Shown piece by piece: positions 3,896 to 64,000 of a DNA stretch of 64,000 bases (position 1 is its first letter; each line of letters starts with the position of its first letter). The notes beneath the pieces are model-generated. The model saw only the letters and a list, made by a program, of their open reading frames with translations, did no database searches and was not told the DNA's origin. The stretch comes from Cyclobacteriaceae bacterium (lineage in GTDB: Bacteria; Bacteroidota; Bacteroidia; Cytophagales; Cyclobacteriaceae). The translations under genes were made by a program, and so were the position numbers. The DNA is taken from NCBI GenBank assembly GCA_963664285.2, contig CAXXNX010000060.1, positions 14,829 through 78,828 on the forward strand, given 5' to 3'.

Positions 3896-5527
3896 TTAAC
3901 CCGCATTATTCATAGGCCACCAATTTTGGGATTAATAATGGGTTGCTAACTATTTTTGATTGGAGTGTATGTATTAATTTGAAGATCAACCAGGTTTCTG
4001 GATTTCAAAGGACATTAGAGCGTTTTTTTTGTTAGAATTTTTCAATTTTCAGTCAAAGCTCTATTGTGTTCTTATGGAAGAACATTTTTTTGATTAAATC
4101 TAAACTGTTTAACTGATCGGTCAGTTCACCGTAAGCAAATCGCCCAGCAGGTATTGATATCTAAAGGCTCTTGAGAATTGTATTGTCAATGATCTTTTCC
4201 TTTCTTTCAGGCACGCCCCAACCTTCATCCAGGTAAAGCCGGATATTGTCCACTTGCCATCGTTTAGCAAAGTGGTGTTTTGTTTTGGCAATTAATAATT
4301 TAATCTGCCGGAACATTTCATAACAGAGGGTAGCGATGATTAAACGCATGAAATTGGCCCAGTAGCGATGACAGGAAAGCCGGTCGGAATAAGTCATGTT
4401 TTTGAGTTCCTTTATTCGATTTTCACTGGCATCACCTCGCTTGACATAAAAATCAAAGTAAATCTGTTGAGCGGTCATCGCTTCAAAGTTGCTCACAAAG
4501 TAACGGACATTCATTCCTTTTCCGGTAGACTCCACTTTGGCGTACAGCTTTTCAGAACGATCCCAGCTTTTGGCCTGGTAAGTAAACGGGCCAACAAACT
4601 CTTGATGTTTGATGATTTTTGAAGCATATTCCTTTTTTACTTCAATGATAGTCTGTTTGGTAAAAGTCTTTAAAACTTCATTACTACTAATACCTAAACA
4701 AAATTGAAGGTCAAACTGCTTAGCTATCCGATAAAAAGATGCTCCTGAAAAGCCACTATCCGCTCGAATAAGGATCTTTACTGAGGGCAGTTTTTTTCTG
4801 ATTTTAATGACAATCCTTTTCAATAAGGCCACAAACCATTTGTTGGAGTGACAATTGCCCGGACGTAGTACTGGTAAAATGACCTGACCGGTGTTCCCGT
4901 CCTTAAAGAACAACTCATGGTACATAGTCTGTCCATAATAGCCATTATACAAACTGAGTTGTTGGGATCCATGAGTAGGGTCATCGGTACCATCTACATC
5001 AATGATGATTTGACCAGTCTTCTCTTTCAACTCCTCTACATAACGGTCTACAAACCATTGACTCATCTGGTAGATCAGACTCCGATCGGCCTTGTTTTCA
5101 AATCGACTTAAAGTAGGCTGGGAACATAATCCGCTATCTAGTACTTTACGGATCACCGGATCCTCTCGGAGTTTTTGTTCGTCATTGCAATCCTGACAGC
5201 CCTGCATCATTAAAAACACCCGTTGGCGAAGCATTTCTTCATAAGTGTATTCGATAAAAAAGGGGTTTCGATAGTCAGGAATCAGTGCGGCGAAGCTTTT
5301 TAATAGACCAGTCTTTCTCTCTACTTTTTCACTTAACAATATCGCTCCGTCTGAGCTAATCGCTGATGCTGAAAAATCAAATTTAAAAGCTTGTTTTCCT
5401 CGATAAAATACGGTATCTTTTTCCTTATATTCAGGCATAAATTAATTGCTTATTTTGTTGTCTAACTATCTCAATATAAGCAATTTATGCCTATTTTTTA
5501 TTGTCTACTATGAATTTTTCGGGTTAA
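3896..5527 (-). mobile_element. IS1380-family-like IS, copy A (TTAA-flanked)
   Basis: TTAA|CCCGCATTATTCATAGG... at 3896 and ...CTATGAATTTTTCGGG|TTAA at 5527. Near-identical to copies B-J, with small indels (8 T instead of 7 at ~4023, extra C at ~4230, extra T at ~4090). Confidence 0.9.
4161..5438 (-). pseudogene. IS transposase, copy A, C-terminal frameshift
   Basis: The 425-aa ORF diverges from the 438-aa consensus after '...DNIRLYL' because of one extra C (catcCagg at ~4230). It also has a Y->C change (MQGCQD). Confidence 0.8.
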
Positions 5528-5879
5528 GTAGCACGGCTATCAAAAAGTGGGAATAGTTGATATTCCGATTGGTAATGGTTCCGTCAGATGGGGATGGCTT
5601 GCGGGAGATGAGGCCATGACGAATAATTTCATTTACGTTTATAAAAGGAACCTTTTGGCCCTGGCATTTGGTGAAAATGTGGAGAGGACTGATAGAACGG
5701 TAGCAAGACCACCTCCCGTCCTTTATAGTCAGAATAGACCCGGTTGTTTTCAAGGTCAAGGCTCAGATATTGATCAGCTTCTTTTGTTCTCGCCAGTGTA
5801 AAATCACCTAAAAGTATGAGCTTACATTGAAAGATAATGTAAGTTCAAGTAATAAATAAATGCTAACAAAAAATCTATA

Positions 5880-6283
5880 ATGATGAAAAGAGTAACTGGA
5901 ATTGGTGGAGTGTTTTTCAAGGTCAAAGACCCCCAGGCTATGCGTGACTGGTATGGTAAACACTTGGGTATACCTCATATGAGTGATATGGAGGCAGCTT
6001 TGAATGGCGACAAAAAGAAAACCCGGATGAGTTGGGTCATACTGCATGGAGCGTAATGGACGAGAAAAGTGAGTATTACAAACCCAGTAACTCAAAATTT
6101 ATGATCAATTACAGGGTCAAAGACCTTGAAGGTCTCCTAAAAGCTTTAAAAGAAGAAGGCGTAGAAACTGTGGGTGAGGTAGAATCATTCGACTATGGCA
6201 AATTTGGCTGGATCCTTGATCCAGAAGGGAATAAGATTGAGTTGTGGGAACCGAATGATGCGGTCTATAGTAAGATGCTCTAG
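5880..6283 (+). pseudogene. VOC/glyoxalase-family protein, frameshifted
   Basis: 'MMKRVTGIGGVFFKVKDPQAMRDWYGKHLGIP' reads in one frame from ATG 5880. 'YGGSFEWRQKENPDELGHTAWSV...GKFGWILDPEGNKIELWEP' continues in another frame. The shift is near 5980. Confidence 0.65.
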
Positions 6284-6292
6284 ACTTGAAGA

Positions 6293-7199: not shown

Positions 7200-8828
7200 T
7201 TAACCCGAAAAATTCATAGTAGACAATAAAAAACAGGCATAAATTGCTTATATTGAGATAGTTAGACAACAAAATAAGCAATTAATTTATGCCTGAATAT
7301 AAGGAAAAAGATACCGTATTTTATCGAGGAAAACAAGCTTTTAAATTTGATTTTTCAGCATCAGCGATTAGCTCAGACGGAGCGATATTGTTAAGTGAAA
7401 AAGTAGAGAGAAAGACTGGTCTATTAAAAAGCTTCGCCGCACTGATTCCTGACTATCGAAACCCCTTTTTTATCGAATACACTTATGAAGAAATGCTTCG
7501 CCAACGGGTGTTTTTAATGATGCAGGGCTATCAGGATTGCAATGACGAACAAAAACTCCGAGAGGATCCGGTGATCCGTAAAGTACTAGATAGCGGATTA
7601 TGTTCCCAGCCTACTTTAAGTCGATTTGAAAACAAGGCCGATCGGAGTCTGATCTACCAGATGAGTTAATGGTTTGTAGACCGTTATGTAGAGGAGTTGA
7701 AAGAGAAGACTGGTCAAATCATCATTGATGTAGATGGTACCGATGACCCTACTCATGGATCCCAACAACTCAGTTTGTATAATGGCTATTATAGACAGAC
7801 TATGTACCATGAGTTGTTCTTTAAGGACGGGAACACCGGTCAGGTCATTTTACCAGTACTACGTCCGGGCAATTGTCACTCCAACAAATGGTTTGTGGCC
7901 TTATTGAAAAGGATTGTCATTAAAATCAGAAAAAAACTGCCCTCAGTAAAGATCCTTATTCGAGCGGATAGTGGCTTTTCAGGAGCATCTTTTTATCGGA
8001 TAGCTAAGCAGTTTGACCTTCAATTTTGTTTAGGTATTAGTAGTAATGAAGTTTTAAAGACTTTTACCAAACAGACTATCATTGAAGTAAAAAAGGAATA
8101 TGCTTCAAAAATCATCAAACATCAAGAGTTTGTTGGCCCGTTTACTTACCAGGCCAAAAGCTGGGATCGTTCTGAAAAGCTGTACGCCAAAGTGGAGTCT
8201 ACCGGAAAAGGAATGAATGTCCGTTACTTTGTGAGCAACTTTGAAGCGATGACCGCTCAACAGATTTACTTTGATTTTTATGTCAAGCGAGGTGATGCCA
8301 GTGAAAATCGAATAAAGGAACTCAAAAACATGACTTATTCCGACCGGCTTTCCTGTCATCGCTACTGGGCCAATTTTATGCGTTTAATCATCGCTACCCT
8401 CTGTTATGAAATGTTCCGGCAGATTAAATTATTAATTGCCAAAACAAAACACCACTTTGCTAAACGATGGCAAGTGGACAATATCCGGCTTTACCTGATG
8501 AAGGTTGGGGCGTGCCTGAAAGAAAGGAAAAGATCATTGACAATACAATTCTCAAGAGCCTTTAGATATCAATACCTGCTGGGCGATTTGCTTACGGTGA
8601 ACTGACCGATCAGTTAAACAGTTTGATTTAATCAAAAAAATGTTCTTCCATAAGAACACAATAGAGCTTTGACTGAAAATTGAAAAATTCTAACAAAAAA
8701 ACGCTCTAATGTCCTTTGAAATCCAGAAACCTGGTTGATCTTCAAATTAATACATACACTCCAATCAAAAATAGTTAGCAACCCATTATTAATCCCAAAA
8801 TTGGTGGCCTATGAATAATGCGGGTTAA
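7200..8828 (+). mobile_element. IS1380-family-like IS, copy B (simple insertion in mscS)
   Basis: TTAA at 7200-7203 and 8825-8828. The IS proper is 7204-8824 (1,621 bp). Confidence 0.95.
7289..8605 (+). pseudogene. IS transposase, copy B, nonsense mutation
   Basis: The CAA->TAA stop at 7667-7669 (consensus ...YQMSQWF...) splits the ORF into 126 + 302 aa. There is also a G->R change (YYRQTMY). Confidence 0.85.
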
Positions 8829-17785: not shown

Positions 17786-18844
17786 GAGTGCCTGGACACA
17801 AAGCTCATTTTCATCGGATGTACCAATGGAAATCCTAACACAATGGCTCAGTGGGCCGCCTAAAAGTCGAACAAAGACACCTCTTTTCATCAATTCATCA
17901 AAAATGCGCCTGGCTTCTTCCGGACTTTTCTGAACGGTCATGATAAAGTTTCCGAAAGAAGGAACATAGGTCACACCTAATCGATCAAATTTTTTGTAAT
18001 AGTAGGAGAGGCCGTTGCTGTTATTCTCCAGTGTAGATTTGAGAAAACTCAAGTCATCAATAGCACCCACACCAGCTGCCTGGGCTAGATTAGAGGGCTC
18101 GAAAGTAAGCCTGACTTTATAAAGCGTAGAAATAATCTCCTCGGATGCAATTCCATATCCTAAGCGAATACCCGCGATTCCATATGCTTTCGAAAATGTC
18201 CTCAGACTAATAACATTGTCAAATCCAAGAATCGTACTATCTGGATAATCATTTGACAGATCATGCGAAAATTCGTAATAGGCCTCGTCCATTATTACCA
18301 GAACCTTATCAGGAATTTTCTCCAGGAAATTAACCAGATCGGTTTTGGTTATCATTGTTCCGGTGGGATTATTGATATTAGATAGGTAGATCACTTTGGT
18401 TTGCCTATTGACTGATTTGAGAATCGCTTTCAAATCAAAAGCATAGTCAGGAGTTAACGGAAGAGCCCTGCAGAAAATATTGTTCACCTTGGCCCAATTA
18501 TACACTATAACGAAAGTCCCCTGTGAAGTCAGGAACTCATCATCGCCGGTGCAGAATGCCCTAATAATGCTCATGAGCAAGCCTTCGGAGCCGTTGCTAA
18601 GGATCACATTTTCGGAATTCATATTTACTCTATTGGCGATCTTGCTACAAAGTAAGGAGGCACGAGGATCAGGATAGTAATTGGAAGACCCCAGAGATTC
18701 CTTTACTGCTTCCATTGCTTTTTCGGAAACTCCCAAAGTGTTTTCATTGTTCCACTGAACTGCGTATTGTTCCCAGTCGTTTTCTTGTACCAATTCTTCA
18801 ACCGTCTTCCCCGGTTTGTAACTTTGTATGGATTTAACCCGCAT
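17768..18844 (-). CDS. hisC: histidinol-phosphate-aminotransferase-like class II aminotransferase, N-terminus replaced by the IS end
   Basis: HisC-like motifs 'NENTLG', 'NNPTG', 'DEAYYEF' and 'RTFSKAYGIAGIRLGYG' are present. The first three codons, ATG CGG G, come from the IS terminus (IS tip at 18838). Confidence 0.65.
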   Translation of the reverse strand: MRVKSIQSYKPGKTVEELVQENDWEQYAVQWNNENTLGVSEKAMEAVKESLGSSNYYPDPRASLLCSKIANRVNMNSENVILSNGSEGLLMSIIRAFCTGDDEFLTSQGTFVIVYNWAKVNNIFCRALPLTPDYAFDLKAILKSVNRQTKVIYLSNINNPTGTMITKTDLVNFLEKIPDKVLVIMDEAYYEFSHDLSNDYPDSTILGFDNVISLRTFSKAYGIAGIRLGYGIASEEIISTLYKVRLTFEPSNLAQAAGVGAIDDLSFLKSTLENNSNGLSYYYKKFDRLGVTYVPSFGNFIMTVQKSPEEARRIFDELMKRGVFVRLLGGPLSHCVRISIGTSDENELCVQALSDVLG

Positions 18845-20461
18845 TATTCATAGGCCACCAATTTTGGGATTAATAATGGGTTGCTAACTATTTTTGATTG
18901 GAGTGTATGTATTAATTTGAAGATCAACCAGGTTTCTGGATTTCAAAGGACATTAGAGCGTTTTTTTGTTAGAATTTTTCAATTTTCAGTCAAAGCTCTA
19001 TTGTGTTCTTATGGAAGAACATTTTTTTGATTAAATCAAACTGTTTAACTGATCGGTCAGTTCACCGTAAGCAAATCGCCCAGCAGGTATTGATATCTAA
19101 AGGCTCTTGAGAATTGTATTGTCAATGATCTTTTCCTTTCTTTCAGGCACGCCCCAACCTTCATCAGGTAAAGCCGGATATTGTCCACTTGCCATCGTTT
19201 AGCAAAGTGGTGTTTTGTTTTGGCAATTCATAATTTAATCTGCCGGAACATTTCATAACAGAGGGTAGCGATGATTAAACGCATGAAATTGGCCCAGTAG
19301 CGATGACAGGAAAGCCGGTCGGAATAAGTCATGTTTTTGAGTTCCTTTATTCGATTTTCACTGGCATCACCTCGCTTGACATAAAAATCAAAGTAAATCT
19401 GTTGAGCGGTCATCGCTTCAAAGTTGCTCACAAAGTAACGGACATTCATTCCCTTTCCGGTAGACTCCACTTTGGCGTACAGCTTTTCAGAACGATCCCA
19501 GCTTTTGGCCTGGTAAGTAAACGGGCCAACAAACTCTTGATGTTTGATGATTTTTGAAGCATATCCCTTTTTTACTTCAATGATAGTCTGTTTGGTAAAA
19601 GTCTTTAAAACTTCATTACTACTAATACCTAAACAAAATTGAAGGTCAAACTGCTTAGCTATCCGATAAAAAGATGCTCCTGAAAAGCCACTATCCGCTC
19701 GAATAAGGATCTTTACTGAGGGCAGTTTTTTTCTGATTTTAATGACAATCCTTTTCAATAAGGCCACAAACCATTTGTTGGAGTGACAATTGCCCGGACG
19801 TAGTACTGGTAAAATGACCTGACCGGTGTTCCCGTCCTTAAAGAACAACTCATGGTACATAGTCTGTCCATAATAGCCATTATACAAACTGAGTTGTTGG
19901 GATCCATGAGTAGGGTCATCGGTACCATCTACATCAATGATGATTTGACCAGTCTTCTCTTTCAACTCCTCTACATAACGGTCTACAAGCCATTGACTCA
20001 TCTGGTAGATCAGACTCCGATCGGCCTTGTTTTCAAATCGACTTAAAGTAGGCTGGGAACATAATCCGCTATCTAGTACTTTACGGATCACCGGATCCTC
20101 TCGGAGTTTTTGTTCGTCATTGCAATCCTGATAGCCCTGCATCATTAAAAACACCCGTTGGCGAAGCATTTCTTCATAAGTGTATTCGATAAAAAAGGGG
20201 TTTCGATAGTCAGGAATCAGTGCGGCGAAGCTTTTTAATAGACCAGTCTTTCTCTCTACTTTTTCACTTAACAATATCGCTCCGTCTGAGCTAATCGCTG
20301 ATGCTGAAAAATCAAATTTAAAAGCTTGTTTTCCTCGATAAAATACGGTATCTTTTTCCTTATATTTAGGCATAAATTAATTGCTTATTTTGTTGTCTAA
20401 CTATCTCAATATAAGCAATTTATGCCTGTTTTTTATTGTCTACTATGAATTTTCGGGTTAA
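18834..20461 (-). mobile_element. IS1380-family-like IS, copy C
   Basis: TTAA at 18834-18837, IS proper 18838-20457. The IRL variant has 4 T (gaattttcggg). The right flank is the internal TTAAGTCG site of another IS copy (D). Confidence 0.9.
19228..20373 (-). pseudogene. IS transposase, copy C, premature stop
   Basis: 381 aa. TTA->TGA at 19228-19230 removes the last 57 aa. Substitutions are E3K, F->L and E->G. Confidence 0.8.
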
Positions 20462-21670
20462 GTCGATTTGAAAACAAGGCCGATCGGAGTCTGATCTACC
20501 AGATGAGTCAATGGTTTGTAGACCGTTATGTAGAGGAGTTGAAAGAGAAGACTGGTCAAATCATCATTGATGTAGATGGTACCGATGACCCTACTCATGG
20601 ATCCCAACAACTCAGTTTGTATAATGGCTATTATGGACAGACTATGTACCATGAGTTGTTCTTTAAGGACGGGAACACCGGTCAGGTCATTTTACCAGTA
20701 CTACGTCCGGGCAATTGTCACTCCAACAAATGGTTTGTGGCCTTATTGAAAAGGATTGTCATTAAAATCAGAAAAAAACTGCCCTCAGTAAAGATCCTTA
20801 TTCGAGCGGATAGTGGCTTTTCAGGAGCATCTTTTTATCGGATAGCTAAGCAGTTTGACCTTCAATTTTGTTTAGGTATTAGTAGTAATGAAGTTTTAAA
20901 GACTTTTACCAAACAGACTATCATTGAAGTAAAAAAGGAATATGCTTCAAAAATCATCAAACATCAAGAGTTTGTTGGCCCGTTTACTTACCAGGCCAAA
21001 AGCTGGGATCGTTCTGAAAAGCTGTACGCCAAAGTGGAGTCTACCGGAAAAGGAATGAATGTCCGTTACTTTGTGAGCAACTTTGAAGCGATGACCGCTC
21101 AACAGATTTACTTTGATTTTTATGTCAAGCGAGGTGATGCCAGTGAAAATCGAATAAAGGAACTCAAAAACATGACTTATTCCGACCGGCTTTCCTGTCA
21201 TCGCTACTGGGCCAATTTCATGCGTTTAATCATCGCTACCCTCTGTTATGAAATGTTCCGGCAGATTAAATTATTAATTGCCAAAACAAAACACCACTTT
21301 GCTAAACGATGGCAAGTGGACAATATCCGGCTTTACCTGATGAAGGTTGGGGCGTGCCTGAAAGAAAGGAAAAGATCATTGACAATACAATTCTCAAGAG
21401 CCTTTAGATATCAATACCTGCTGGGCGATTTGCTTACGGTGAACTGACCGATCAGTTAAACAGTTTGGTTTAATCAAAAAAATGTTCTTCCATAAGAACA
21501 CAATAGAGCTTTGACTGAAAATTGAAAAATTCTAACAAAAAAACGCTCTAATGTCCTTTGAAATCCAGAAACCTGGTTGATCTTCAAATTAATACATACA
21601 CTCCAATCAAAAATAGTTAGCAACCCATTATTAATCCCAAAATTGGTGGCCTATGAATAATGCGGGTTAA
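20458..21670 (+). mobile_element. IS1380-family-like IS, partial copy D (3' 1,209 bp only)
   Basis: It starts at the internal TTAA (20458) and ends CGGG|TTAA at 21666/21670. It carries the transposase C-terminal 314 codons (20503-21447). Confidence 0.9.
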
Positions 21671-30069: not shown

Positions 30070-33069
30070 CCCGAAAAATTCATAGTAGACAATAAAAAAC
30101 AGGCATAAATTGCTTATATTGAGATAGTTAGACAACAAAATAAGCAATTAATTTATGCCTGAATATAAGGAAAAAGATACCGTATTTTATCGAGGAAAAC
30201 AAGCTTTTAAATTTGATTTTTCAGCATCAGCGATTAGCTCAGACGGAGCGATATTGTTAAGTGAAAAAGTAGAGAGAAAGACTGGTCTATTAAAAAGCTT
30301 CGCCGCACTGATTCCTGACTATCGAAACCCCTTTTTTATCGAATACACTTATGAAGAAATGCTTCACCAACGGGTGTTTTTAATGATGCAGGGCTATCAG
30401 GATTGCAATGACGAACAAAAACTCCGAGAGGATCCGGTGATCCGTAAAGTACTAGATAGCGGATTATGTTCCCAGCCTACTTTAAGCATTATTCATAGGC
30501 CACAATTTTGGGATTAATAATGGGTTGCTAACTATTTTTGATTGGAGTGTATGTATTAAAAATCAAAGACATTAGAGCAGAATTTTTCAATTTTCAGTCA
30601 AATCTATTGTGTTCTTATGGAAGAACATTTTTTTGATTAATGTTTAACTGATCGGTCAGTTCACCGTAAGCAAATCGCCCAGCAGGTATTGATATCTAAA
30701 GGCTCTTGAGAATTGTATTGTCAATGATCTTTTCCTTTCTTTCAGGCACGCCCCAACCTTCATCAGGTAAAAATTGTCCACTTGCCATCGTTTAGCAAAG
30801 TGGTGTTTTGTTTTGGCAATTAATAATTTAATCTGCCGGAACATTTATAACAGAGGGTAGATGAAAACGCATGAAATTGGCCCAGTAGCGATGACAGGAA
30901 AGCCGGTCGGAATAAGTCATGTTTTTGAGTTCCTTTATTGATTTTCACTGGCATCACCTCGCTTGACATAAAAATCAAAGTAAATCAGCGGTCATCGCTT
31001 CAAAGTTGCTCACAAAGTAACGGACATTCATTCCTCGGTAGACTCCACTTTGGCGTACAGCTTTTCAGAACGATCCCAGCTTTTGCCTTAAGTGAAAACG
31101 GGCCAACAAACTCTTGATGTTTGATGATTTTTGAAGCATATTCCTTTTTTACTTCAATGATAGTCTGTTTGGTAAAAGCTAATACCTAAACAAAATTGAA
31201 GGTCAAACTGCTTAGCTATCCGATAAAAAGACTGAAAAGACTATCCGCTCGAATAAGAATCTTTACTGAGGGCAGTTTTTTTCGATAAGGCCACAAACCA
31301 TTTGTTGGAGTGACAATTGCCCGGACGTATACGTAAAATGACCTGACTTAAAGAACAACTATGGATAGTCTGATAATGCCATTTCTGAGTTGTTGGGATC
31401 CATGAGTAGGGTCATCGGTACCATCTACATCAATGATGATTTGACCAGTCTTCTCTTTCAACTCCTCTACATAACGGTCTTTGACTCATCTGGTAGATCA
31501 GACTCCGATAGGCCTTGTTTTCAAATCGACTTAAAGTAGGCTGGGAACATAATCCGCTATCTAGTACTTTACGGATCACCGGATCCTCTCGGAGTTTTTG
31601 TTCGTCATTGCAATCCTGAATCATTAAAAAACCCGTTGGCGAAATTTCTTCATAAGTGTATTCCGAGTCAGGAGTGCGGCGAAGCTTTTTAATGATCGTA
31701 CTGAGCTAATCGCTGATGTGAAAAATCTAAAAGCTTGTTTTCCTCGATAAAATACGGTATCTTTTTCCGGCATAAATTAATTGCTTATTTTGTTGTCTAA
31801 CTATCTCAATATAAGCAATTTAGCCTGTTTTTTATTGTCTACTATGAATTTTCGGGTTAAGTCGATTTGAAAACAAGGCCGATCGGAGTCTGATCTACCA
31901 GATGAGTCAATGGTTTGTAGACCGTTATGTAGAGGAGTTGAAAGAGAAGACTGGTCAAATCATCATTGATGTAGATGGTACCGATGACCCTACTCATGGA
32001 TCCCAACAACTCAGTTTGTATAATGGCTATTATGGACAGACTATGTACCATGAGTTGTTCTTTAAGGACGGGAACACCGGTCAGGTCATTTTACCAGTAC
32101 TACGTCCGGGCAATTGTCACTCCAACAAATGGTTTGTGGCCTTATTGAAAAGGATTGTCATTAAAATCAGAAAAAAACTGCCCTCAGTAAAGATCCTTAT
32201 TCGAGCGGATAGTGGCTTTTCAGGAGCATCTTTTTATCGGATAGCTAAGCAGTTTGACCTTCAATTTTGTTTAGGTATTAGTAGTAATGAAGTTTTAAAG
32301 ACTTTTACCAAACAGACTATCATTGAAGTAAAAAAGGAATATGCTTCAAAAATCATCAAACATCAAGAGTTTGTTGGCCCGTTTACTTACCAGGCCAAAA
32401 GCTGGGATCGTTCTGAAAAGCTGTACGCCAAAGTGGAGTCTACCGGAAAAGGAATGAATGTCCGTTACTTTGTGAGCAACTTTGAAGCGATGACCGCTCA
32501 ACAGATTTACTTTGATTTTTATGTCAAGCGAGGTGATGCCAGTGAAAATCGAATAAAGGAACTCAAAAACATGACTTATTCCGACCGGCTTTCCTGTCAT
32601 CGCTACTGGGCCAATTTCATGCGTTTAATCATCGCTACCCTCTGTTATGAAATGTTCCGGCAGATTAAATTATTAATTGCCAAAACAAAACACCACTTTG
32701 CTAAACGATGGCAAGTGGACAATATCCGGCTTTACCTGATGAAGGTTGGGGCGTGCCTGAAAGAAAGGAAAAGATCATTGACAATACAATTCTCAAGAGC
32801 CTTTAGATATCAATACCTGCTGGGCGATTTGCTTACGGTGAACTGACCGATCAGTTAAACAGTTTGGTTTAATCAAAAAAATGTTCTTCCATAAGAACAC
32901 AATAGAGCTTTGACTGAAAATTGAAAAATTCTAACAAAAAAACGCTCTAATGTCCTTTGAAATCCAGAAACCTGGTTGATCTTCAAATTAATACATACAC
33001 TCCAATCAAAAATAGTTAGCAACCCATTATTAATCCCAAAATTGGTGGCCTATGAATAATGCGGGATAA
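30066..33069 (+). mobile_element. IS1380-family-like IS, copy E, split by nested copy F
   Basis: E-left is 30070-30485 (416 bp) and E-right is 31861-33065 (1,205 bp), which sum to 1,621 bp. The TTAA at 30482 is duplicated at 31857. The outer flanks are TTAA and ATAA. Confidence 0.9.
30486..31856 (-). mobile_element. degenerate nested IS copy F (1,371 bp, riddled with small deletions)
   Basis: It is collinear with the consensus in reverse orientation but lacks ~250 bp, spread over roughly 30 deletions of 1 to a few tens of nt. The IRR tip CCC is missing. The IRL is the 4-T variant. Confidence 0.85.
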
Positions 33070-45266: not shown

Positions 45267-46891
45267 CCCGAAAAATTCATAGTAGACAATAAAAAACAGG
45301 CATAAATTGCTTATATTGAGATAGTTAGACAACAAAATAAGCAATTAATTTATGCCTGAATATAAGGAAAAAGATACCGTATTTTATCGAGGAAAACAAG
45401 CTTTTAAATTTGATTTTTCAGCATCAGCGATTAGCTCAGACGGAGCGATATTGTTAAGTGAAAAAGTAGAGAGAAAGACTGGTCTATTAAAAAGCTTCGC
45501 CGCACTGATTCCTGACTATCGAAACCCCTTTTTTATCGAATACACTTATGAAGAAATGCTTCGCCAACGGGTGTTTTTAATGATGCAGGGCTATCAGGAT
45601 TGCAATGACGAACAAAAACTCCGAGAGGATCCGGTGATCCGTAAAGTACTAGATAGCGGATTATGTTCCCAGCCTACTTTAAGTCGATTTGAAAACAAGG
45701 CCGATCGGAGTCTGATCTACCAGATGAGTCAATGGTTTGTAGACCGTTATGTAGAGGAGTTGAAAGAGAAGACTGGTCAAATCATCATTGATGTAGATGG
45801 TACCGATGACCCTACTCATGGATCCCAACAACTCAGTTTGTATAATGGCTATTATGGACAGACTATGTACCATGAGTTGTTCTTTAAGGACGGGAACACC
45901 GGTCAGGTCATTTTACCAGTACTACGTCCGGGCAATTGTCACTCCAACAAATGGTTTGTGGCCTTATTGAAAAGGATTGTCATTAAAATCAGAAAAAAAC
46001 TGCCCTCAGTAAAGATCCTTATTCGAGCGGATAGTGGCTTTTCAGGAGCATCTTTTTATCGGATAGCTAAGCAGTTTGACCTTCAATTTTGTTTAGGTAT
46101 TAGTAGTAATGAAGTTTTAAAGACTTTTACCAAACAGACTATCATTGAAGTAAAAAAGGAATATGCTTCAAAAATCATCAAACATCAAGAGTTTGTTGGC
46201 CCGTTTACTTACCAGGCCAAAAGCTGGGATCGTTCTGAAAAGCTGTACGCCAAAGTGGAGTCTACCGGAAAAGGAATGAATGTCCGTTACTTTGTGAGCA
46301 ACTTTGAAGCGATGACCGCTCAACAGATTTACTTTGATTTTTATGTCAAGCGAGGTGATGCCAGTGAAAATCGAATAAAGGAACTCAAAAACATGACTTA
46401 TTCCGACCGGCTTTCCTGTCATCGCTACTGGGCCAATTTCATGCGTTTAATCATCGCTACCCTCTGTTATGAAATGTTCCGGCAGATTAAATTATTAATT
46501 GCCAAAACAAAACACCACTTTGCTAAACGATGGCAAGTGGACAATATCCGGCTTTACCTGATGAAGGTTGGGGCGTGCCTGAAAGAAAGGAAAAGATCAT
46601 TGACAATACAATTCTCAAGAGCCTTTAGATATCAATACCTGCTGGGCGATTTGCTTACGGTGAACTGACCGATCAGTTAAACAGTTTAGTTTAATCAAAA
46701 AAATGTTCTTCCATAAGAACACAATAGAGCTTTGACTGAAAATTGAAAAATTCTAACAAAAAAACGCTCTAATGTCCTTTGAAATCCAGAAACCTGGTTG
46801 ATCTTCAAATTAATACATACACTCCAATCAAAAATAGTTAGCAACCCATTATTAATCCCAAAATTGGTGGCCTATGAATAATGCGGGTTAA
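45263..46891 (+). mobile_element. IS1380-family-like IS, copy G (intact)
   Basis: TTAA at 45263-45266 and 46888-46891. The IS proper is 45267-46887 (1,621 bp). IRL is CCCGAAAAATTCATAGTAGAC and IRR (rc) is CCCGCATTATTCATAGGCCAC, matching at 15/21 positions. Confidence 0.95.
45352..46668 (+). CDS. IS1380-family-like DDE transposase (438 aa, intact)
   Basis: 'SSDGAILL', 'CSQPTLSRFEN', 'IIDVDGTDDPTHGSQQLSLYNGYYG', 'IRADSGF' and 'KRGDASENRIKELK' match the pattern I associate with IS1380-group transposases. Confidence 0.85.
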   Translation: MPEYKEKDTVFYRGKQAFKFDFSASAISSDGAILLSEKVERKTGLLKSFAALIPDYRNPFFIEYTYEEMLRQRVFLMMQGYQDCNDEQKLREDPVIRKVLDSGLCSQPTLSRFENKADRSLIYQMSQWFVDRYVEELKEKTGQIIIDVDGTDDPTHGSQQLSLYNGYYGQTMYHELFFKDGNTGQVILPVLRPGNCHSNKWFVALLKRIVIKIRKKLPSVKILIRADSGFSGASFYRIAKQFDLQFCLGISSNEVLKTFTKQTIIEVKKEYASKIIKHQEFVGPFTYQAKSWDRSEKLYAKVESTGKGMNVRYFVSNFEAMTAQQIYFDFYVKRGDASENRIKELKNMTYSDRLSCHRYWANFMRLIIATLCYEMFRQIKLLIAKTKHHFAKRWQVDNIRLYLMKVGACLKERKRSLTIQFSRAFRYQYLLGDLLTVN

Positions 46892-52675: not shown

Positions 52676-53036
52676 TATATTTTTGAATGAATTGGGGCGT
52701 TAATCCTTAATATAATAGGTCTCCTCCGCCGGCCTCAAAGCCCTTGAAAGATGGACTCCACCATCGCTCCAGAAAATCCTGGAGGTATCATTATCCTCGG
52801 TTTTTGAAGGATGGATGTTTTTGTGAACCCTCATCTTCCATACTCCTGGCTGGTTATTTTTGATCTCGACCAGATTAGTGGCCCAGCGATTGCCTTTTGG
52901 GTCCTGCGCCCTACGCCATCTCCCAAGGTGGTGCGAACAAGCTAGAATACCTGGCTTCATTCCTTCAGTAACCCATACCTTATCTACAAAGTAACCGATC
53001 TCAGTACTGACCCTTACCAAGTCACCTGAGACCAAA

Positions 53037-54665
53037 TTAACCCGAAAAATTCATAGTAGACAATAAAAAACAGGCATAAATTGCTTATATTGAGATAGTT
53101 AGACAACAAAATAAGCAATTAATTTATGCCTGAATATAAGGAAAAAGATACCGTATTTTATCGAGGAAAACAAGCTTTTAAATTTGATTTTTCAGCATCA
53201 GCGATTAGCTCAGACGGAGCGATATTGTTAAGTGAAAAAGTAGAGAGAAAGACTGGTCTATTAAAAAGCTTCGCCGCACTGATTCCTGACTATCGAAACC
53301 CCTTTTTTATCGAATACACTTATGAAGAAATGCTTCGCCAACGGGTGTTTTTAATGATGCAGGGCTATCAGGATTGCAATGACGAACAAAAACTCCGAGA
53401 GGATCCGGTGATCCGTAAAGTACTAGATAGCGGATTATGTTCCCAGCCTACTTTAAGTCGATTTGAAAACAAGGCCGATCGGAGTCTGATCTACCAGATG
53501 AGTCAATGGTTTGTAGACCGTTATGTAGAGGAGTTGAAAGAGAAGACTGGTCAAATCATCATTGATGTAGATGGTACCGATGACCCTACTCATGGATCCC
53601 AACAACTCAGTTTGTATAATGGCTATTATGGACAGACTATGTACCATGAGTTGTTCTTTAAGGACGGGAACACCGGTCAGGTCATTTTACCAGTACTACG
53701 TCCGGGCAATTGTCACTCCAACAAATGGTTTGTGGCCTTATTGAAAAGGATTGTCATTAAAATCAGAAAAAAACTGCCCTCAGTAAAGATCCTTATTCGA
53801 GCGGATAGTGGCTTTTCAGGAGCATCTTTTTATCGGATAGCTAAGCAGTTTGACCTTCAATTTTGTTTAGGTATTAGTAGTAATGAAGTTTTAAAGACTT
53901 TTACCAAACAGACTATCATTGAAGTAAAAAAGGAATATGCTTCAAAAATCATCAAACATCAAGAGTTTGTTGGCCCGTTTACTTACCAGGCCAAAAGCTG
54001 GGATCGTTCTGAAAAGCTGTACGCCAAAGTGGAGTCTACCGGAAAAGGAATGAATGTCCGTTACTTTGTGAGCAACTTTGAAGCGATGACCGCTCAACAG
54101 ATTTACTTTGATTTTTATGTCAAGCGAGGTGATGCCAGTGAAAATCGAATAAAGGAACTCAAAAACATGACTTATTCCGACCGGCTTTCCTGTCATCGCT
54201 ACTGGGCCAATTTCATGCGTTTAATCATCGCTACCCTCTGTTATGAAATGTTCCGGCAGATTAAATTATTAATTGCCAAAACAAAACACCACTTTGCTAA
54301 ACGATGGCAAGTGGACAATATCCGGCTTTACCTGATGAAGGTTGGGGCGTGCCTGAAAGAAAGGAAAAGATCATTGACAATACAATTCTCAAGAGCCTTT
54401 AGATATCAATACCTGCTGGGCGATTTGCTTACGGTGAACTGACCGATCAGTTAAACAGTTTGGTTTAATCAAAAAAATGTTCTTCCATAAGAACACAATA
54501 GAGCTTTGACTGAAAATTGAAAAATTCTAACAAAAAAACGCTCTAATGTCCTTTGAAATCCAGAAACCTGGTTGATCTTCAAATTAATACATACACTCCA
54601 ATCAAAAATAGTTAGCAACCCATTATTAATCCCAAAATTGGTGGCCTATGAATAATGCGGGCTAA
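53037..54665 (+). mobile_element. IS1380-family-like IS, copy H (intact, simple insertion)
   Basis: TTAA at 53037-53040. The IS proper is 53041-54661 (1,621 bp). The right flank is CTAA (54662-54665). Confidence 0.95.
53126..54442 (+). CDS. IS1380-family-like DDE transposase (438 aa, intact)
   Basis: The protein is identical to the copy G ORF. Confidence 0.85.
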   Translation: MPEYKEKDTVFYRGKQAFKFDFSASAISSDGAILLSEKVERKTGLLKSFAALIPDYRNPFFIEYTYEEMLRQRVFLMMQGYQDCNDEQKLREDPVIRKVLDSGLCSQPTLSRFENKADRSLIYQMSQWFVDRYVEELKEKTGQIIIDVDGTDDPTHGSQQLSLYNGYYGQTMYHELFFKDGNTGQVILPVLRPGNCHSNKWFVALLKRIVIKIRKKLPSVKILIRADSGFSGASFYRIAKQFDLQFCLGISSNEVLKTFTKQTIIEVKKEYASKIIKHQEFVGPFTYQAKSWDRSEKLYAKVESTGKGMNVRYFVSNFEAMTAQQIYFDFYVKRGDASENRIKELKNMTYSDRLSCHRYWANFMRLIIATLCYEMFRQIKLLIAKTKHHFAKRWQVDNIRLYLMKVGACLKERKRSLTIQFSRAFRYQYLLGDLLTVN

Positions 54666-55447
54666 ACCTTTGAGCATCTGAAGTATGCATCCAAATAGGA
54701 TTGCGATTCGCAATTTCAGCCAACCACTTGGCATTACCCGATCTTGTATGAATGAGAACGGGGAGCCTGAAAGTTGGAACCAGTGGAAACTCCCCAGCTT
54801 CTCTATCCATATTATCCTCATGTATGTGACTCTTAATATAAGTCGGCAATCGATATTCAGGCCACTTCCAGTCCACCATGGTTTGGGAAAAAAATTCCTG
54901 CTTTTTTGAAGGTGATGCAAAACCAGTTACAGATTTGCCATCAACCTCTATCCCTACCACTTTACCTTCCTTGATCAAATGTCCTTTACCATCTGATGTT
55001 GCCTTTTGCAACGTCTCTTTGTCAAGATCTTTTAGGTGTTTGTTATAAGAGTGCTTTTCCACTTCAAAGGCACCGTACTTCCTCATATAATCCAGCGGTG
55101 ACAACCCTTCACCGGATGCCTTTTCATTTAATCCCGGAGTATGCTCAAAGATGAACTGGTAGTACTCCTCAACGGTAACCTTCTCCCCTTTTCGGTAGGG
55201 AGAAATGAAGTGTTCCTTTATACCTAATTCTCCGGTGGGGTCAATCCTCCATGACAACTCGATCCAGAACTCATCTTCCTCCCATACTTCGCCTGGATTC
55301 GACTCATAATTAAATTTCACCTCCTTCCCCGACCGTCTGGCAGCTTCTCTCAGCACTGGTTGCCTGAATGCAATCCAGGTGCCACCATGGGTTTCATAGC
55401 TATTAATATCATGACGTTCACTGGCGTGACCCATTGGCAAAACATAA

Positions 55448-55663
55448 TCAGCAAAAATAGGCAGTTTCATTCCAGGTTGGTGCAGGCTTGTAATGCCGAT
55501 CAACTAAGCAGATCTCCTGTTCAGCTCCAATGTGCATTTGTCCTTCGTTAAACCAGCCATCCTCTAACATTTTCTCTAATGCATGAGTGTCCTGTAATAA
55601 ATGGCGGGTAAAACTGTTAAGATCCTTTTGATTGGTGACTAGCCTGACATTTGCACTTCCCAT
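55448..55663 (-). pseudogene. carboxylate-amine/glutamate-cysteine-ligase-like protein, N-terminal ~65 aa only
   Basis: 'IGAEQEICLVD' is a GCS2-like motif. The frame collapses at ~55495, where the molybdopterin oxidoreductase fragment begins. Confidence 0.3.
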
Positions 55664-55895
55664 ATTCGTAATCTTTTAAAGGGCCTAAAACGGCACTAAA
55701 ATAAATATAGTAAATCTACACCTATCCGCGGATGCTATTTTCTTTTTCAATATTAAATGAGATTGTGTATCCTAAAAATGGTTCATGCGTTTTATTAACT
55801 TTGCAATGATTAGGGAAGACTGAATAGGATTTTTAGAGATGCCCTATAATATTTGACTGGAATTCCGTTTTATTCATCAGATCGTTCGACAGGGT

Positions 55896-57524
55896 TTAAC
55901 CCGCATTATTCATAGGCCACCAATTTTGGGATTAATAATGGGTTGCTAACTATTTTTGATTGGAGTGTATGTATTAATTTGAAGATCAACCAGGTTTCTG
56001 GATTTCAAAGGACATTAGAGCGTTTTTTTGTTAGAATTTTTCAATTTTCAGTCAAAGCTCTATTGTGTTCTTATGGAAGAACATTTTTTTGATTAAATCA
56101 AACTGTTTAACTGATCGGTCAGTTCACCGTAAGCAAATCGCCCAGCAGGTATTGATATCTAAAGGCTCTTGAGAATTGTATTGTCAATGATCTTTTCCTT
56201 TCTTTCAGGCACGCCCCAACCTTCATCAGGTAAAGCCGGATATTGTCCACTTGCCATCGTTTAGCAAAGTGGTGTTTTGTTTTGGCAATTAATAATTTAA
56301 TCTGCCGGAACATTTCATAACAGAGGGTAGCGATGATTAAACGCATGAAATTGGCCCAGTAGCGATGACAGGAAAGCCGGTCGGAATAAGTCATGTTTTT
56401 GAGTTCCTTTATTCGATTTTCACTGGCATCACCTCGCTTGACATAAAAATCAAAGTAAATCTGTTGAGCGGTCATCGCTTCAAAGTTGCTCACAAAGTAA
56501 CGGACATTCATTCCTTTTCCGGTAGACTCCACTTTGGCGTACAGCTTTTCAGAACGATCCCAGCTTTTGGCCTGGTAAGTAAACGGGCCAACAAACTCTT
56601 GATGTTTGATGATTTTTGAAGCATATTCCTTTTTTACTTCAATGATAGTCTGTTTGGTAAAAGTCTTTAAAACTTCATTACTACTAATACCTAAACAAAA
56701 TTGAAGGTCAAACTGCTTAGCTATCCGATAAAAAGATGCTCCTGAAAAGCCACTATCCGCTCGAATAAGGATCTTTACTGAGGGCAGTTTTTTTCTGATT
56801 TTAATGACAATCCTTTTCAATAAGGCCACAAACCATTTGTTGGAGTGACAATTGCCCGGACGTAGTACTGGTAAAATGACCTGACCGGTGTTCCCGTCCT
56901 TAAAGAACAACTCATGGTACATAGTCTGTCCATAATAGCCATTATACAAACTGAGTTGTTGGAATCCATGAGTAGGGTCATCGGTACCATCTACATCAAT
57001 GATGATTTGACCAGTCTTCTCTTTCAACTCCTCTACATAACGGTCTACAAACCATTGACTCATCTGGTAGATCAGACTCCGATCGGCCTTGTTTTCAAAT
57101 CGACTTAAAGTAGGCTGGGAACATAATCCGCTATCTAGTACTTTACGGATCACCGGATCCTCTCGGAGTTTTTGTTCGTCATTGCAATCCTGATAGCTCT
57201 GCATCATTAAAAACACCCGTTGGCGAAGCATTTCTTCATAAGTGTATTCGATAAAAAAGGGGTTTCGATAGTCAGGAATCAGTGCGGCGAAGCTTTTTAA
57301 TAGACCAGTCTTTCTCTCTACTTTTTCACTTAACAATATCGCTCCGTCTGAGCTAATCGCTGATGCTGAAAAATCAAATTTAAAAGCTTGTTTTCCTCGA
57401 TAAAATACGGTATCTTTTTCCTTATATTCAGGCATAAATTAATTGCTTATTTTGCTGTCTAACTATCTCAATATAAGCAATTTATGCCTGTTTTTTATTG
57501 TCTACTATGAATTTTTCGGGCTAA
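55896..57524 (-). mobile_element. IS1380-family-like IS, copy I
   Basis: TTAA at 55896-55899. The IS proper is 55900-57520 (1,621 bp). The right flank is CTAA. The two flanks belong to unrelated genes. Confidence 0.95.
56119..57435 (-). CDS. IS1380-family-like DDE transposase (438 aa, two substitutions)
   Basis: Full-length ORF with G->S (MMQSYQ) and S->F (THGFQQ) relative to copies G/H. Confidence 0.8.
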   Translation of the reverse strand: MPEYKEKDTVFYRGKQAFKFDFSASAISSDGAILLSEKVERKTGLLKSFAALIPDYRNPFFIEYTYEEMLRQRVFLMMQSYQDCNDEQKLREDPVIRKVLDSGLCSQPTLSRFENKADRSLIYQMSQWFVDRYVEELKEKTGQIIIDVDGTDDPTHGFQQLSLYNGYYGQTMYHELFFKDGNTGQVILPVLRPGNCHSNKWFVALLKRIVIKIRKKLPSVKILIRADSGFSGASFYRIAKQFDLQFCLGISSNEVLKTFTKQTIIEVKKEYASKIIKHQEFVGPFTYQAKSWDRSEKLYAKVESTGKGMNVRYFVSNFEAMTAQQIYFDFYVKRGDASENRIKELKNMTYSDRLSCHRYWANFMRLIIATLCYEMFRQIKLLIAKTKHHFAKRWQVDNIRLYLMKVGACLKERKRSLTIQFSRAFRYQYLLGDLLTVN

Positions 57525-62572: not shown

Positions 62573-62665
62573 GTTTATATGCCTTGTCGTTTACAAACCG
62601 AACTATTTACCTAGACGATAGATGTCAGAAAAAAGTATATTGAACGTGAAAGCTCGTAGTTAAAT

Positions 62666-62796
62666 ATGGCATTGTTTTCATTCTTAGATAGAGTGCATTC
62701 TTTAGCCAAACCTGGTTACAACCGCTGGTTGGTCCCTCCTGCCGCCTTGTCCATCCATCTTTGCATCGGTCAGATTTATGCATACAGTGTATTTAA
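62666..62796 (+). pseudogene. MFS transporter (oxalate/formate antiporter-like), cut after ~43 codons by IS copy J
   Basis: 'MALFSFLDRVHSLAKPGYNRWLVPPAALSIHLCIGQIYAYSVF' is followed directly by the IS terminus. Confidence 0.6.
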
Positions 62797-64000
62797 CCCG
62801 AAAAATTCATAGTAGACAATAAAAAACAGGCATAAATTGCTTATATTGAGATAGTTAGACAACAAAATAAGCAATTAATTTATGCCTGAATATAAGGAAA
62901 AAGATACCGTATTTTATCGAGGAAAACAAGCTTTTAAATTTGATTTTTCAGCATCAGCGATTAGCTCAGACGGAGCGATATTGTTAAGTGAAAAAGTAGA
63001 GAGAAAGACTGGTCTATTAAAAAGCTTCGCCGCACTGATTCCTGACTATCGAAACCCCTTTTTTATCGAATACACTTATGAAGAAATGCTTCGCCAACGG
63101 GTGTTTTTAATGATGCAGGGCTATCAGGATTGCAATGACGAACAAAAACTCCGAGAGGATCCGGTGATCCGTAAAGTACTAGATAGCGGATTATGTTCCC
63201 AGCCTACTTTAAGTCGATTTGAAAACAAGGCCGATCGGAGTCTGATCTACCAGATGAGTCAATGGTTTGTAGACCGTTATGTAGAGGAGTTGAAAGAGAA
63301 GACTGGTCAAATCATCATTGATGTAGATGGTACCGATGACCCTACTCATGGATCCCAACAACTCAGTTTGTATAATGGCTATTATGGACAGACTATGTAC
63401 CATGAGTTGTTCTTTAAGGACGGGAACACCGGTCAGGTCATTTTACCAGTACTACGTCCGGGCAATTGTCACTCCAACAAATGGTTTGTGGCCTTATTGA
63501 AAAGGATTGTCATTAAAATCAGAAAAAAACTGCCCTCAGTAAAGATCCTTATTCGAGCGGATAGTGGCTTTTCAGGAGCATCTTTTTATCGGATAGCTAA
63601 GCAGTTTGACCTTCAATTTTGTTTAGGTATTAGTAGTAATGAAGTTTTAAAGACTTTTACCAAACAGACTATCATTGAAGTAAAAAAGGAATATGCTTCA
63701 AAAATCATCAAACATCAAGAGTTTGTTGGCCCGTTTACTTACCAGGCCAAAAGCTGGGATCGTTCTGAAAAGCTGTACGCCAAAGTGGAGTCTACCGGAA
63801 AAGGAATGAATGTCCGTTACTTTGTGAGCAACTTTGAAGCGATGACCGCTCAACAGATTTACTTTGATTTTTATGTCAAGCGAGGTGATGCCAGTGAAAA
63901 TCGAATAAAGGAACTCAAAAACATGACTTATTCCGACCGGCTTTCCTGTCATCGCTACTGGGCCAATTTTATGCGTTTAATCATCGCTACCCTCTGTTAT
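62793..64000 (+). mobile_element. IS1380-family-like IS, copy J (runs off the window)
   Basis: TTAA at 62793-62796, then CCCGAAAAATTCATAG from 62797. It matches the consensus to the window end. Confidence 0.9.
62882..64000 (+). CDS. IS1380-family-like DDE transposase, partial at window edge
   Basis: ATG at 62882. The frame stays open and matches the consensus through 64000. It is not in the ORF track because no stop is reached. Confidence 0.8.
   Translation, partial: MPEYKEKDTVFYRGKQAFKFDFSASAISSDGAILLSEKVERKTGLLKSFAALIPDYRNPFFIEYTYEEMLRQRVFLMMQGYQDCNDEQKLREDPVIRKVLDSGLCSQPTLSRFENKADRSLIYQMSQWFVDRYVEELKEKTGQIIIDVDGTDDPTHGSQQLSLYNGYYGQTMYHELFFKDGNTGQVILPVLRPGNCHSNKWFVALLKRIVIKIRKKLPSVKILIRADSGFSGASFYRIAKQFDLQFCLGISSNEVLKTFTKQTIIEVKKEYASKIIKHQEFVGPFTYQAKSWDRSEKLYAKVESTGKGMNVRYFVSNFEAMTAQQIYFDFYVKRGDASENRIKELKNMTYSDRLSCHRYWANFMRLIIATLCY

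Follow-up and report, generated by a model that had tools for sequence, protein, structure and literature searches.

A single insertion sequence (IS) is present in the genome of a Cyclobacteriaceae bacterium in about 300 full copies and about 80 further ends, and it fills almost a quarter of the window, that is, the whole 64-kb stretch of DNA that was analysed. We consider it very probable that this is an autonomous IS of the IS1380 family which targets TTAA and has recently multiplied within one lineage of the Cyclobacteriaceae. With a length of 1,621 bp, it has a single open reading frame (ORF) at IS positions 86-1402 encoding 438 aa, and is bounded by imperfect, CCCG-tipped terminal inverted repeats of 16 bp, the left and right versions of which match at 12 of 16 bases. 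Copy G, which differs from the genome-wide consensus by one base (position 1422), served as the reference:

45267..46887, plus strand: copy G, full 1,621 bp, flanks TTAA/TTAA
45267..45282, plus strand: left inverted repeat CCCGAAAAATTCATAG, 376 exact copies genome-wide
46872..46887, plus strand: right inverted repeat CTATGAATAATGCGGG (reverse complement CCCGCATTATTCATAG), 364 exact copies genome-wide
45297..45358, plus strand: leader stem-loop predicted by folding (IS positions 31-92), transposase ATG in its 3' arm
45352..46668, plus strand: ORF of the 438-aa DDE transposase

The leader stem-loop has a predicted energy of -21 kcal/mol (z -5.2), and none of 200 shuffled sequences folded equally well. 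Such a hairpin would bury the start codon of the transposase.

Assignment to the IS1380 family, as put forward in the original prediction, is supported by profile searches. The transposase matched the NCBIfam equivalog model NF033539 (IS1380 family transposase) with 321.8 bits (cut-off 180), the alignment spanning model positions 1-418 of 419, and this was its sole NCBIfam match. Pfam PF13701 (DDE_Tnp_1_4) matched with an E value of 1e-112 and PF01609 weakly, with 48.8 bits. The single ORF, the element size (about 1.55-2.0 kb in the family), the CC-tipped repeats and the 4-bp duplication (4-5 bp in the family) all agree with this assignment. Membership of the IS4 family (Tn5/IS50) was considered and rejected because IS1380 was the only NCBIfam match and the duplication is 4 bp rather than 9-12 bp. 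The closest protein in a database of 5.8 billion proteins was 86% identical, and the nearest relatives belong to other organisms.

Among 22 transposase homologues, D147/D149, D227 and E339 were invariant; E339 lies in a YREK-like motif (Y331-R334-E339-K346) and is probably the third catalytic residue. An AlphaFold2 model (pLDDT 82, pTM 0.83) showed a predicted fold of the Tn5/piggyBac type: its best PDB match was Tn5 transposase (1muh, E 4e-9, TM about 0.41-0.46), and it also matched piggyBac (strand-transfer complex 6x67, E 2.6e-7) and piggyBat (5e-5). The link to piggyBac is at the level of the fold only. No piggyBac-family Pfam model matched at E <=0.01, and searches of the PDB with phmmer and a 22-sequence profile returned spurious matches only, reaching neither Tn5 nor piggyBac. 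A C-terminal cysteine-rich domain is absent, as a single cysteine occurs in the last 60 residues, for which helices and a beta hairpin are predicted.

With copy G as the query, blastn recovered every one of the ten copies or fragments listed in the original prediction. It gave seven copies that are either full or cut by the window end, together with four pieces, and these cover 23.6% of the window and agree with the quarter first estimated. The genome-wide mean is 11.4%, and only 4% of 64-kb windows in the genome reach 23%. Besides copy G, the window contains:

3900..5523, minus strand: copy A, full, 1,624 bp, flanks TTAA/TTAA
7204..8824, plus strand: copy B, full, inserted within an mscS-type channel gene, nonsense change at codon 127
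18838..20457, minus strand: copy C, full, nonsense change at codon 382
20462..21666, plus strand: partial copy D, IS positions 417-1621, 5' part absent from the window
30070..30485, plus strand: E-left, belonging to the outer copy of a nested pair (IS positions 1-416)
30486..31856, minus strand: inner copy F, decayed and inverted, at the TTAA of the outer copy (position 413)
31857..33065, plus strand: duplicated TTAA and E-right (IS positions 417-1621)
53041..54661, plus strand: copy H, full, ORF intact, splits a molybdopterin oxidoreductase gene
55900..57520, minus strand: copy I, full, ORF intact with two nucleotide changes
62797..64000, plus strand: copy J, runs past the window end, full 1,621 bp in the contig

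The sequence relationships first described among these copies held: G and H have identical protein products, I is nearly identical, and B and C carry one nonsense change each. A +1 frameshift at IS position 1293 of copy A, the site of which has no long open frame across it, had been missed. The inner copy F shows about 48 deletions of 1-35 bp but only two substitutions.

Of the genes said to be hit, that for mscS is split by copy B between its beta and C-terminal domains; with the IS removed, it reads in frame from NIRFN into ILVGVSY, and it is uninterrupted in four congeners. The molybdopterin oxidoreductase gene split by copy H is likewise uninterrupted in congener G003, and the amidohydrolase gene was found truncated in the left flank of E-left, with a truncated DUF5916 gene in the right flank of E-right. 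In place of the hisC-like gene, a class I/II aminotransferase gene adjoins copy C, with its 5' end forming the left flank. On the right, copy C borders the internal TTAA of partial copy D (413-416), so that its flanks stem from two different original sites. A DUF1800 gene is truncated at the right flank of copy D. The supposed MFS transporter at copy J turned out to be a 45-aa fragment without a Pfam match, and one gene is not continued across the flanks of this copy (TTAA/TTAC). Copy I, with TTAA on its low-coordinate side and CTAA on the right in the plus orientation of the window, has one flank entering a PSCyt2/DUF1549 gene that lacks its N-terminal part. Altogether, the flanks do not continue one gene at five of the eight window loci (C/D, E, G, I and J), for which either true rearrangement or mis-joining in the assembly could account.

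The bloom proposed for the window is real, but it is a property of the whole genome rather than of this locus, and the element is not the only one to have expanded. Counted in the assembly, there are 298 end-to-end copies, about 376-378 left ends and 364 right ends, and the IS amounts to 627 kb of the 5.5-Mb genome (11.4%). Its targets include genes, other IS elements and its own copies.

These copies are neither chance matches nor simple assembly duplicates. Given that the genome is a 92-contig bin, apparently from a long-read metagenome, an assembler might have reused or mis-joined a few real copies and thereby inflated the count and created false joins. Several window copies do join unrelated gene fragments, some long stretches of the assembly are duplicated in inverted orientation, in part at the ends of contigs (C11, C69, C60), and about 20 copies with many small deletions and few substitutions could represent poor local consensus. 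Nevertheless, we regard this account as extremely improbable, and duplication of one or two loci in particular is not supported. Both flanks are unique in 190 of the 298 copies and one flank in a further 63, and 83% carry the same 4-bp duplication on both sides, including ten that are not TTAA. The copies bear private substitutions in a neutral pattern (synonymous, nonsynonymous and stop changes at 31/62/7%, with 31/65/5% expected under neutrality), genes that are split cleanly and in frame have intact orthologues in congeners, and no more than 7 of the 184 contig ends fall within the IS. Mis-joins could give some discontinuous flanks, but not 376 left and 364 right ends. A contig-scale fold-back artefact at a palindrome in C10 was also rejected, the palindrome being confined to about 2 kb of IS sequence. 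Many copies across the genome now join unrelated gene fragments, which fits later recombination between copies; assembly mis-joins could produce the same pattern.

The suggestion of a recent, possibly ongoing burst is supported by the divergence among copies. Relative to the consensus, the median is two substitutions per 1,621-bp copy, and 37 copies are identical to it. In the site-frequency spectrum, 241 of 356 variable sites are singletons. The ORF is intact in 204 copies, 108 of which encode an identical protein; since sequencing errors may account for 131 one-base indels, which are enriched in homopolymers, 204 is a lower bound. Nested self-insertions point the same way, and within the assembly, activity that may still be ongoing is supported by a filled/empty pair: an IS lies at C9:7516-9136, while the same TTAA is empty in C40, with flanks 99.7% identical. 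Four congeners contain 23, 1, 0 and 1 left ends, where the 23 belong to a different relative in congener G001, showing that the expansion is lineage-specific.

Low divergence would not date the burst if ancient copies had been kept 99.8% alike by gene conversion. Compatible with this are the haplotypes at positions 1422/1423 (GG in 161, GA in 70 and AG in 64 copies), which form a mosaic among composite copies, and a decayed tail of about 20 copies with identities down to 75%, which shows that the IS has been present for some time. However, the near absence of left ends from three congeners, the intact state of the tested target genes in congeners, and the close identity of the flanks of the filled/empty pair all argue against this. 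In addition, 42% of analysable insertions lie within open frames of at least 150 aa, which would be hard to maintain for long, and six other IS families are equally homogeneous. We therefore hold gene conversion to be highly improbable as the source of the homogeneity, and a recent burst remains the preferred reading.

The composite copies contain a second IS, inserted at 859-861 (seven copies) or 1480-1487 (six copies) of the IS1380 element. Movement of these composites as units was considered and set aside, because they share no private mutations and differ in their 1422/1423 haplotypes; repeated site-specific insertion by the second IS is an explanation as likely as such movement.

The IS explains many broken genes and much of the lost synteny in this genome, and probably also its lower completeness (93.9%, compared to 98-100% in most relatives). 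Separately, a 7.7-kb stretch of the sulfate permease region of congener G002 maps to four contigs here, and these breaks in synteny were not tied to IS1380 copies.

The original prediction had spoken of a 4-bp-compatible duplication. The length of 4 bp was correct, but the statement was too weak, as the target is specifically TTAA. This tetranucleotide stands on both sides of 239 of the 298 end-to-end copies, and the base frequencies at the target are T 0.93, T 0.99, A 1.00 and A 0.96. That the 4 bp are duplicated is shown by self-insertions at internal TTAAs (413, 188, 618, 851), which overlap by 4 bp, by the matched non-TTAA pairs and by the in-frame restoration of mscS. Moreover, seven independent relatives (50-62% protein identity) and congener G001 carry the end CCCGAAAAATTCA; the tetranucleotide before it is TTAA in six cases and TAAA in one. 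A TTAA target together with this end thus appears, from the sequences compared, to be a trait of the clade. In a metagenome scan with the left end CCCGAAAAATTCAYNG, a transposase was found downstream in 3 of the 121 matches listed, which were mostly chance matches.

Based on the TTAA duplication and the predicted Tn5/piggyBac-type fold, we infer a cut-and-paste chemistry. The IS would be released via hairpins on the transposon ends and joined, by strand transfer staggered by 4 bp, to the palindrome TTAA, the 4 bp of which it duplicates. Copy number would rise through the sister chromosome, which would either serve as template for repair of the broken donor or take its place, and this is how IS10 and IS50 gain copies. 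To our knowledge, the transposition mechanism of the IS1380 family has been little studied, and our literature search returned no account of it.

One detail may point further. Among 50 insertions that cleanly split genes, four have duplications mismatched by one base, while the rate at which the copies themselves have gained substitutions would predict about 0.5 (P about 0.002). Copy H is one of them (left TTAA, right CTAA), and the G003 orthologue is too divergent at this site to decide the ancestral tetranucleotide. In a piggyBac-like scheme, the excised IS would carry 4-nt TTAA overhangs from the donor site and be joined to the target without gap-filling synthesis, and seamless excision could follow. 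Mismatched duplications would then arise when an overhang brought from the donor paired with a target other than TTAA, an outcome that gap-fill repair cannot yield. That a Bacteroidota-centred IS1380 clade uses piggyBac chemistry in full, and not the target only, is nonetheless a doubtful proposition. If true, the roughly 300 natural insertions would offer a bacterial model for the origin of piggyBac TTAA specificity.

As for the cause of the expansion, an IS30-family element and five others, six families in all, have also expanded at >=99% identity (IS30, ISNCY-like, IS5, IS630 and IS1595 among them), and repeated DNA makes up 24-29% of the genome. Since these families share the same homogeneity, we infer a genome-wide loss of transposition control, for instance through small population size or relaxed selection, rather than a special property of this IS. 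Alternatively, the IS itself might be hyperactive, for example as a new arrival in a naive host, without the population being permissive. It is the most abundant element (each of the others accounts for a few percent), its nearest relatives are found in other organisms, and its target is plentiful, with 38,511 TTAA sites in the genome. Against this stand the parallel expansion of six unrelated families, the decayed copies, which indicate long residence, and congener G001, in which a related IS occupies no more than about 23 sites. Hyperactivity of the IS is therefore unlikely, and loss of control across the genome is favoured. General gene decay, a sign of a bottleneck, was not evident: open-frame coverage of unique DNA equals that of G002 and is somewhat below that of G004.

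Like IS1380A of Acetobacter pasteurianus, ISMex4 and ISEcp1, the IS has a single transposase gene, whose DDE-type product falls in the range of about 430-460 aa and is matched by NF033539 and PF13701, and it shares with the family a size of about 1.6 kb, short inverted repeats and duplication of a palindromic tetranucleotide. Nevertheless, its transposase is only about 31% identical to named members. IS1380A is flanked by TCGA in the five copies examined and has ends beginning CGCGG, whereas TTAA and CCCG are found here. High copy number in some hosts is common to the family, and IS1380A matches 17 places on one A. pasteurianus plasmid, but about 300 copies is far higher. In the papers searched, we found no statement that bacterial IS1380 members target TTAA. 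The near-identical, dated insertions provide an unusually clean natural target-site map for a transposase of this family.

Tn5/IS50 of the IS4 family has a YREK-type motif in common with the transposase, and the mechanism we propose is modelled on its hairpin-based cut-and-paste reaction. In contrast to the 4-bp duplication at TTAA, IS50 generates duplications of 9 bp without a strict target, and the curated model that fits our protein is IS1380, not IS4. The target and duplication are instead those of piggyBac, a superfamily of DNA transposons in eukaryotes. The termini of piggyBac begin with CCC and end with GGG directly adjoining TTAA, and the IS likewise has CCC/GGG termini beside TTAA. 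The signature is thus shared with a widely used genome-engineering tool. In piggyBac, however, the third catalytic residue is D, where the IS probably has E339, and the IS lacks the cysteine-rich C-terminal domain and resides in a prokaryote. PiggyBac and IS1380 are recognised distant relatives (PMC5718144), and this pairing is often stated in the literature.

IS expansions are known from Shigella, Bordetella pertussis, Mycobacterium ulcerans, Sodalis-type weevil symbionts and Candidatus Amoebophilus asiaticus, with repeat loads in the range of 10-25%, and the present genome ranks with the most IS-laden prokaryotes known to us. It shares with them hundreds of near-identical copies, gene disruption, rearrangement at copies and several IS families expanding together. 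In contrast to those cases, the host belongs to the Cyclobacteriaceae, a free-living family not known for host restriction; no evidence of such restriction was seen in this genome, which has no excess ORF loss in unique DNA, and the papers found describe no IS expansion in the family. With 24-29% repeats and one IS at 11.4%, it therefore offers a case for studying what releases IS control. The IS is a new member of a known family, and its unusually large, recent and lineage-specific expansion takes a well-known process to an extreme.

Searching the window by blastn with copy G (45263-46887) recovered every element listed in the original prediction, and all copies and pieces summed account for 23.6% of the window:

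3900-5523, minus strand, full copy A
7204-8824, plus strand, full copy B
18838-20457, minus strand, full copy C
20462-21666, piece D
30070-30485, left piece of E
30486-31856, decayed inverted copy F
31857-33065, right piece of E
45267-46887, plus strand, full copy G
53041-54661, plus strand, full copy H
55900-57520, minus strand, full copy I
62797-64000, plus strand, copy J, its end cut off by the window edge

The element is 1,621 bp long, with the ends CCCGAAAAATTCATAG and, as reverse complement, CCCGCATTATTCATAG, and carries its transposase as a single ORF at positions 86-1402. Checked on the sequences, G and H do encode an identical 438-aa protein, copy I has the two changes claimed for it, and nonsense changes are present at codon 127 of B and codon 382 of C; a +1 frameshift in copy A had escaped the first reading. 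A stem-loop at element positions 31-92 (-21 kcal/mol, z -5.2) holds the ATG inside its 3' arm. Comparable leader stem-loops occur in other IS elements, where they prevent translation of read-in transcripts from outside. A sigma-70 promoter scan of the element gave sites no commoner than in shuffled sequence, using a consensus unlike Bacteroidota promoters. Remnants of IS630 and IS1595 elements lie near 47500-48700.

The proposed IS1380 membership was borne out by the NCBIfam model NF033539 'IS1380 family transposase' (321.8 bits, cut-off 180) and by Pfam DDE_Tnp_1_4 (E 1e-112). The named members IS1380A and ISMex4 share only ~31% identity with the transposase. A 5.8-billion-protein collection placed it in a 311-member cluster at 90% identity, whose entry has no outside source, as is usual for proteins encoded in the window; the next relatives (86% identity) are unnamed, one being labelled Cyclobacteriaceae. 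A sulfate permease near the element is 83% identical to its homologue in the congener G002, a Cyclobacteriaceae metagenome-assembled genome. The element is a novel IS1380-family member, well diverged from those named so far.

Across the 5.50-Mb genome (92 contigs), blastn detected 532 pieces of the element and 298 end-to-end copies, with 376 exact left and 364 exact right ends, totalling 627 kb or 11.4% of the genome. That the burst is recent, as predicted, is upheld by a median distance of 2 substitutions from the consensus, which itself occurs in 37 copies. Singletons make up 241 of 356 variable sites, transitions outnumber transversions (228 vs 34), and the synonymous, nonsynonymous and stop fractions (31/62/7%) match neutral expectation (31/65/5%). 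At least 204 copies retain a complete ORF; this is a lower bound because the one-base indels, which often fall in homopolymers, may reflect sequencing error. The three haplotypes seen at positions 1422/1423 (GG 161, GA 70, AG 64) suggest that several lineages served as sources, and ~20 decayed copies show that the element did not arrive only just now. Among 40 relatives, only the congener G001 carries a related IS, at ~23 sites; the congeners G002-G004 gave 0-1 chance matches. The expansion is unusually large, recent and lineage-specific.

Substitutions among the 298 full copies are chiefly C-to-T where a purine follows the C, on both strands, with a 1.6-fold higher rate on the antisense strand (0.286 G>A changes per G vs 0.174 C>T changes per C; p 0.0045); possible causes are the host's mutation spectrum, deamination linked to transcription, and biased base calling. 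Separately, the inner copy F of the nested pair (30486-31856) differs by just 2 substitutions but has lost sequence in ~48 deletions, each of 1-35 bp, while the adjoining outer halves are 99.8-99.9% intact. About 20 such 'moth-eaten' loci, where gaps are many for the number of substitutions (650 gap openings vs 662 mismatches overall), occur in the genome, for example C25:142319-143078, C30:46897-47968, C68:101146-102133 and C36:40033-41716. Instability of inverted repeats of this length could explain them, as could a consensus of poor quality at these places.

Unique 300-bp flanks were found on both sides of 190 copies and on one side of 63, the remainder adjoining other repeats, and only 7 of 184 contig ends lie inside the element. 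One filled/empty pair, with the element at a TTAA in contig C9 and the same TTAA empty in C40 (flanks 99.7% identical over 3 kb), reflects either variation between strains or an insertion made very recently, after a duplication. Long inverted duplications of 99.8-99.95% identity, two of which reach contig ends, were also observed (C11:1-15085 vs 40261-56405; C69:41003-47420 vs 72025-78442; C60:82517-85629 vs 96674-99785). A 1,072-bp IS is present in one arm of the C11 duplication and absent from the other; all three are either true segmental duplications or alternative-strain contigs.

TTAA stands on both flanks of 239 of the 298 end-to-end copies (base frequencies T 0.93, T 0.99, A 1.00, A 0.96), with a slight preference for C just ahead of it and G just behind. 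This tetranucleotide is the duplicated target and lies outside the element proper, because ten copies have matched non-TTAA flanking pairs, self-insertions at internal TTAAs (positions 413, 188, 618 and 851) overlap by exactly 4 bp, and the mscS frame reads NIRFN|ILVGVSY once copy B and one TTAA are taken out. These results confirm the 4-bp duplication suspected earlier, and the target is specifically TTAA. Four congeners have an unbroken NIRFN[IV]PVGVSY at the copy B site, and the molybdopterin oxidoreductase split by copy H is a single 943-aa frame in congener G003, so both predicted gene hits stand. The start CCCGAAAAATTCA is common to all relatives examined, preceded by TTAA in six and TAAA in one. 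These relatives comprise congener G001, three metagenome elements (50-62% identity), a further element from a coral metagenome (57%), and contigs from Lutibacter (58%) and from a bin carrying the label Chloroflexia (61%). By contrast, TCGA flanks the archetype IS1380A at five sites of an Acetobacter plasmid. Palindromic 4-bp targets thus seem to be the rule in the family, and TTAA is the one used by this clade.

Some clean gene splits have flanking tetranucleotides one base apart, TTAA vs CTAA, TTTA, ATAA or TTAG (4 of 50, vs ~0.5 expected by mutation; copy H at window 53037-54665, C48:26165, C6:4572 and C31:36506). Such mismatches are commoner at loci with discontinuous flanks (24 of 110). 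In the coral-metagenome relative (L015, 57% identity), two sequences resembling right ends lie 73 bp from each other, ~200-280 bp past the transposase stop: ATGAATAATACGGG|CTAA and then ATGAATAATGTGGG|TTAA, the latter of which may be a solo or an alternative end.

After in silico removal of the element, 42% of 160 analysable insertions fell within an open frame of at least 150 aa, compared with 69% of 3,000 random unique TTAA sites, which indicates that selection or site choice purged genic insertions only in part. Within the window, only B and H split genes cleanly and the copy A site appears intergenic. At C/D, E, G, I and J unrelated or truncated genes are joined, among them an amidohydrolase with DUF5916, DUF1800, an ECF sigma factor without region 4, and PSCyt2. 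This fits recombination between copies, and assembly mis-joins would look the same. A 7.7-kb G002 stretch around the sulfate permease is spread over four contigs here (C15, C60, C82 and C61), so that gene order is heavily scrambled; the breaks in this stretch could not be assigned to particular IS copies.

The bloom extends beyond one element. Six other IS families are expanded, nearly all their copies at >=99% identity: an IS30-family element (~145 near-full copies), an ISNCY/IS5-like element (61), an IS630 element (27), two IS5 types (24 and 19) and an IS1595 element (16). Repeated DNA constitutes 24-29% of the genome; the 3.9 Mb of unique DNA equals G002 in open-frame coverage and hence gives no further sign of gene decay. 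Two other ~1.1-kb elements are lodged at fixed positions inside element copies, at 859-861 (7 copies, 3-bp overlap, e.g., C54:45884-48617) and 1480-1487 (6 copies, 8-bp overlap, e.g., C25:131246-133949). These composites have TTAA flanks, each at its own locus, and no private mutations common to the 7 and 6 copies were found; either the other IS are strongly site-specific or the composites moved in trans.

The underlying process is ordinary; noteworthy are its scale and the target data. An AlphaFold2 model of the transposase (pLDDT 82, pTM 0.83) best matched the fold of Tn5 transposase (E 4e-9), followed by piggyBac (E 3e-7) and piggyBat (E 5e-5). D147/D149, D227 and E339, the latter within a YREK-like motif, are invariant across 22 homologues. 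Both Tn5 and piggyBac cleave DNA by way of hairpins formed at the ends of the transposon. Given the similar predicted fold, we propose that the element would follow the same cut-and-paste route via hairpins on its ends, with strand transfer probably staggered by 4 bp. Membership of the piggyBac family itself was ruled out, as the transposase has no sequence-level match to it and is missing the cysteine-rich C-terminal domain of piggyBac. We found no open literature linking bacterial IS1380 members with TTAA; the piggyBac-IS1380 relationship has already been published (PMC5718144; bioRxiv 10.1101/2021.09.26.461848). The TTAA-plus-CCC signature provides a functional link between this element and piggyBac.
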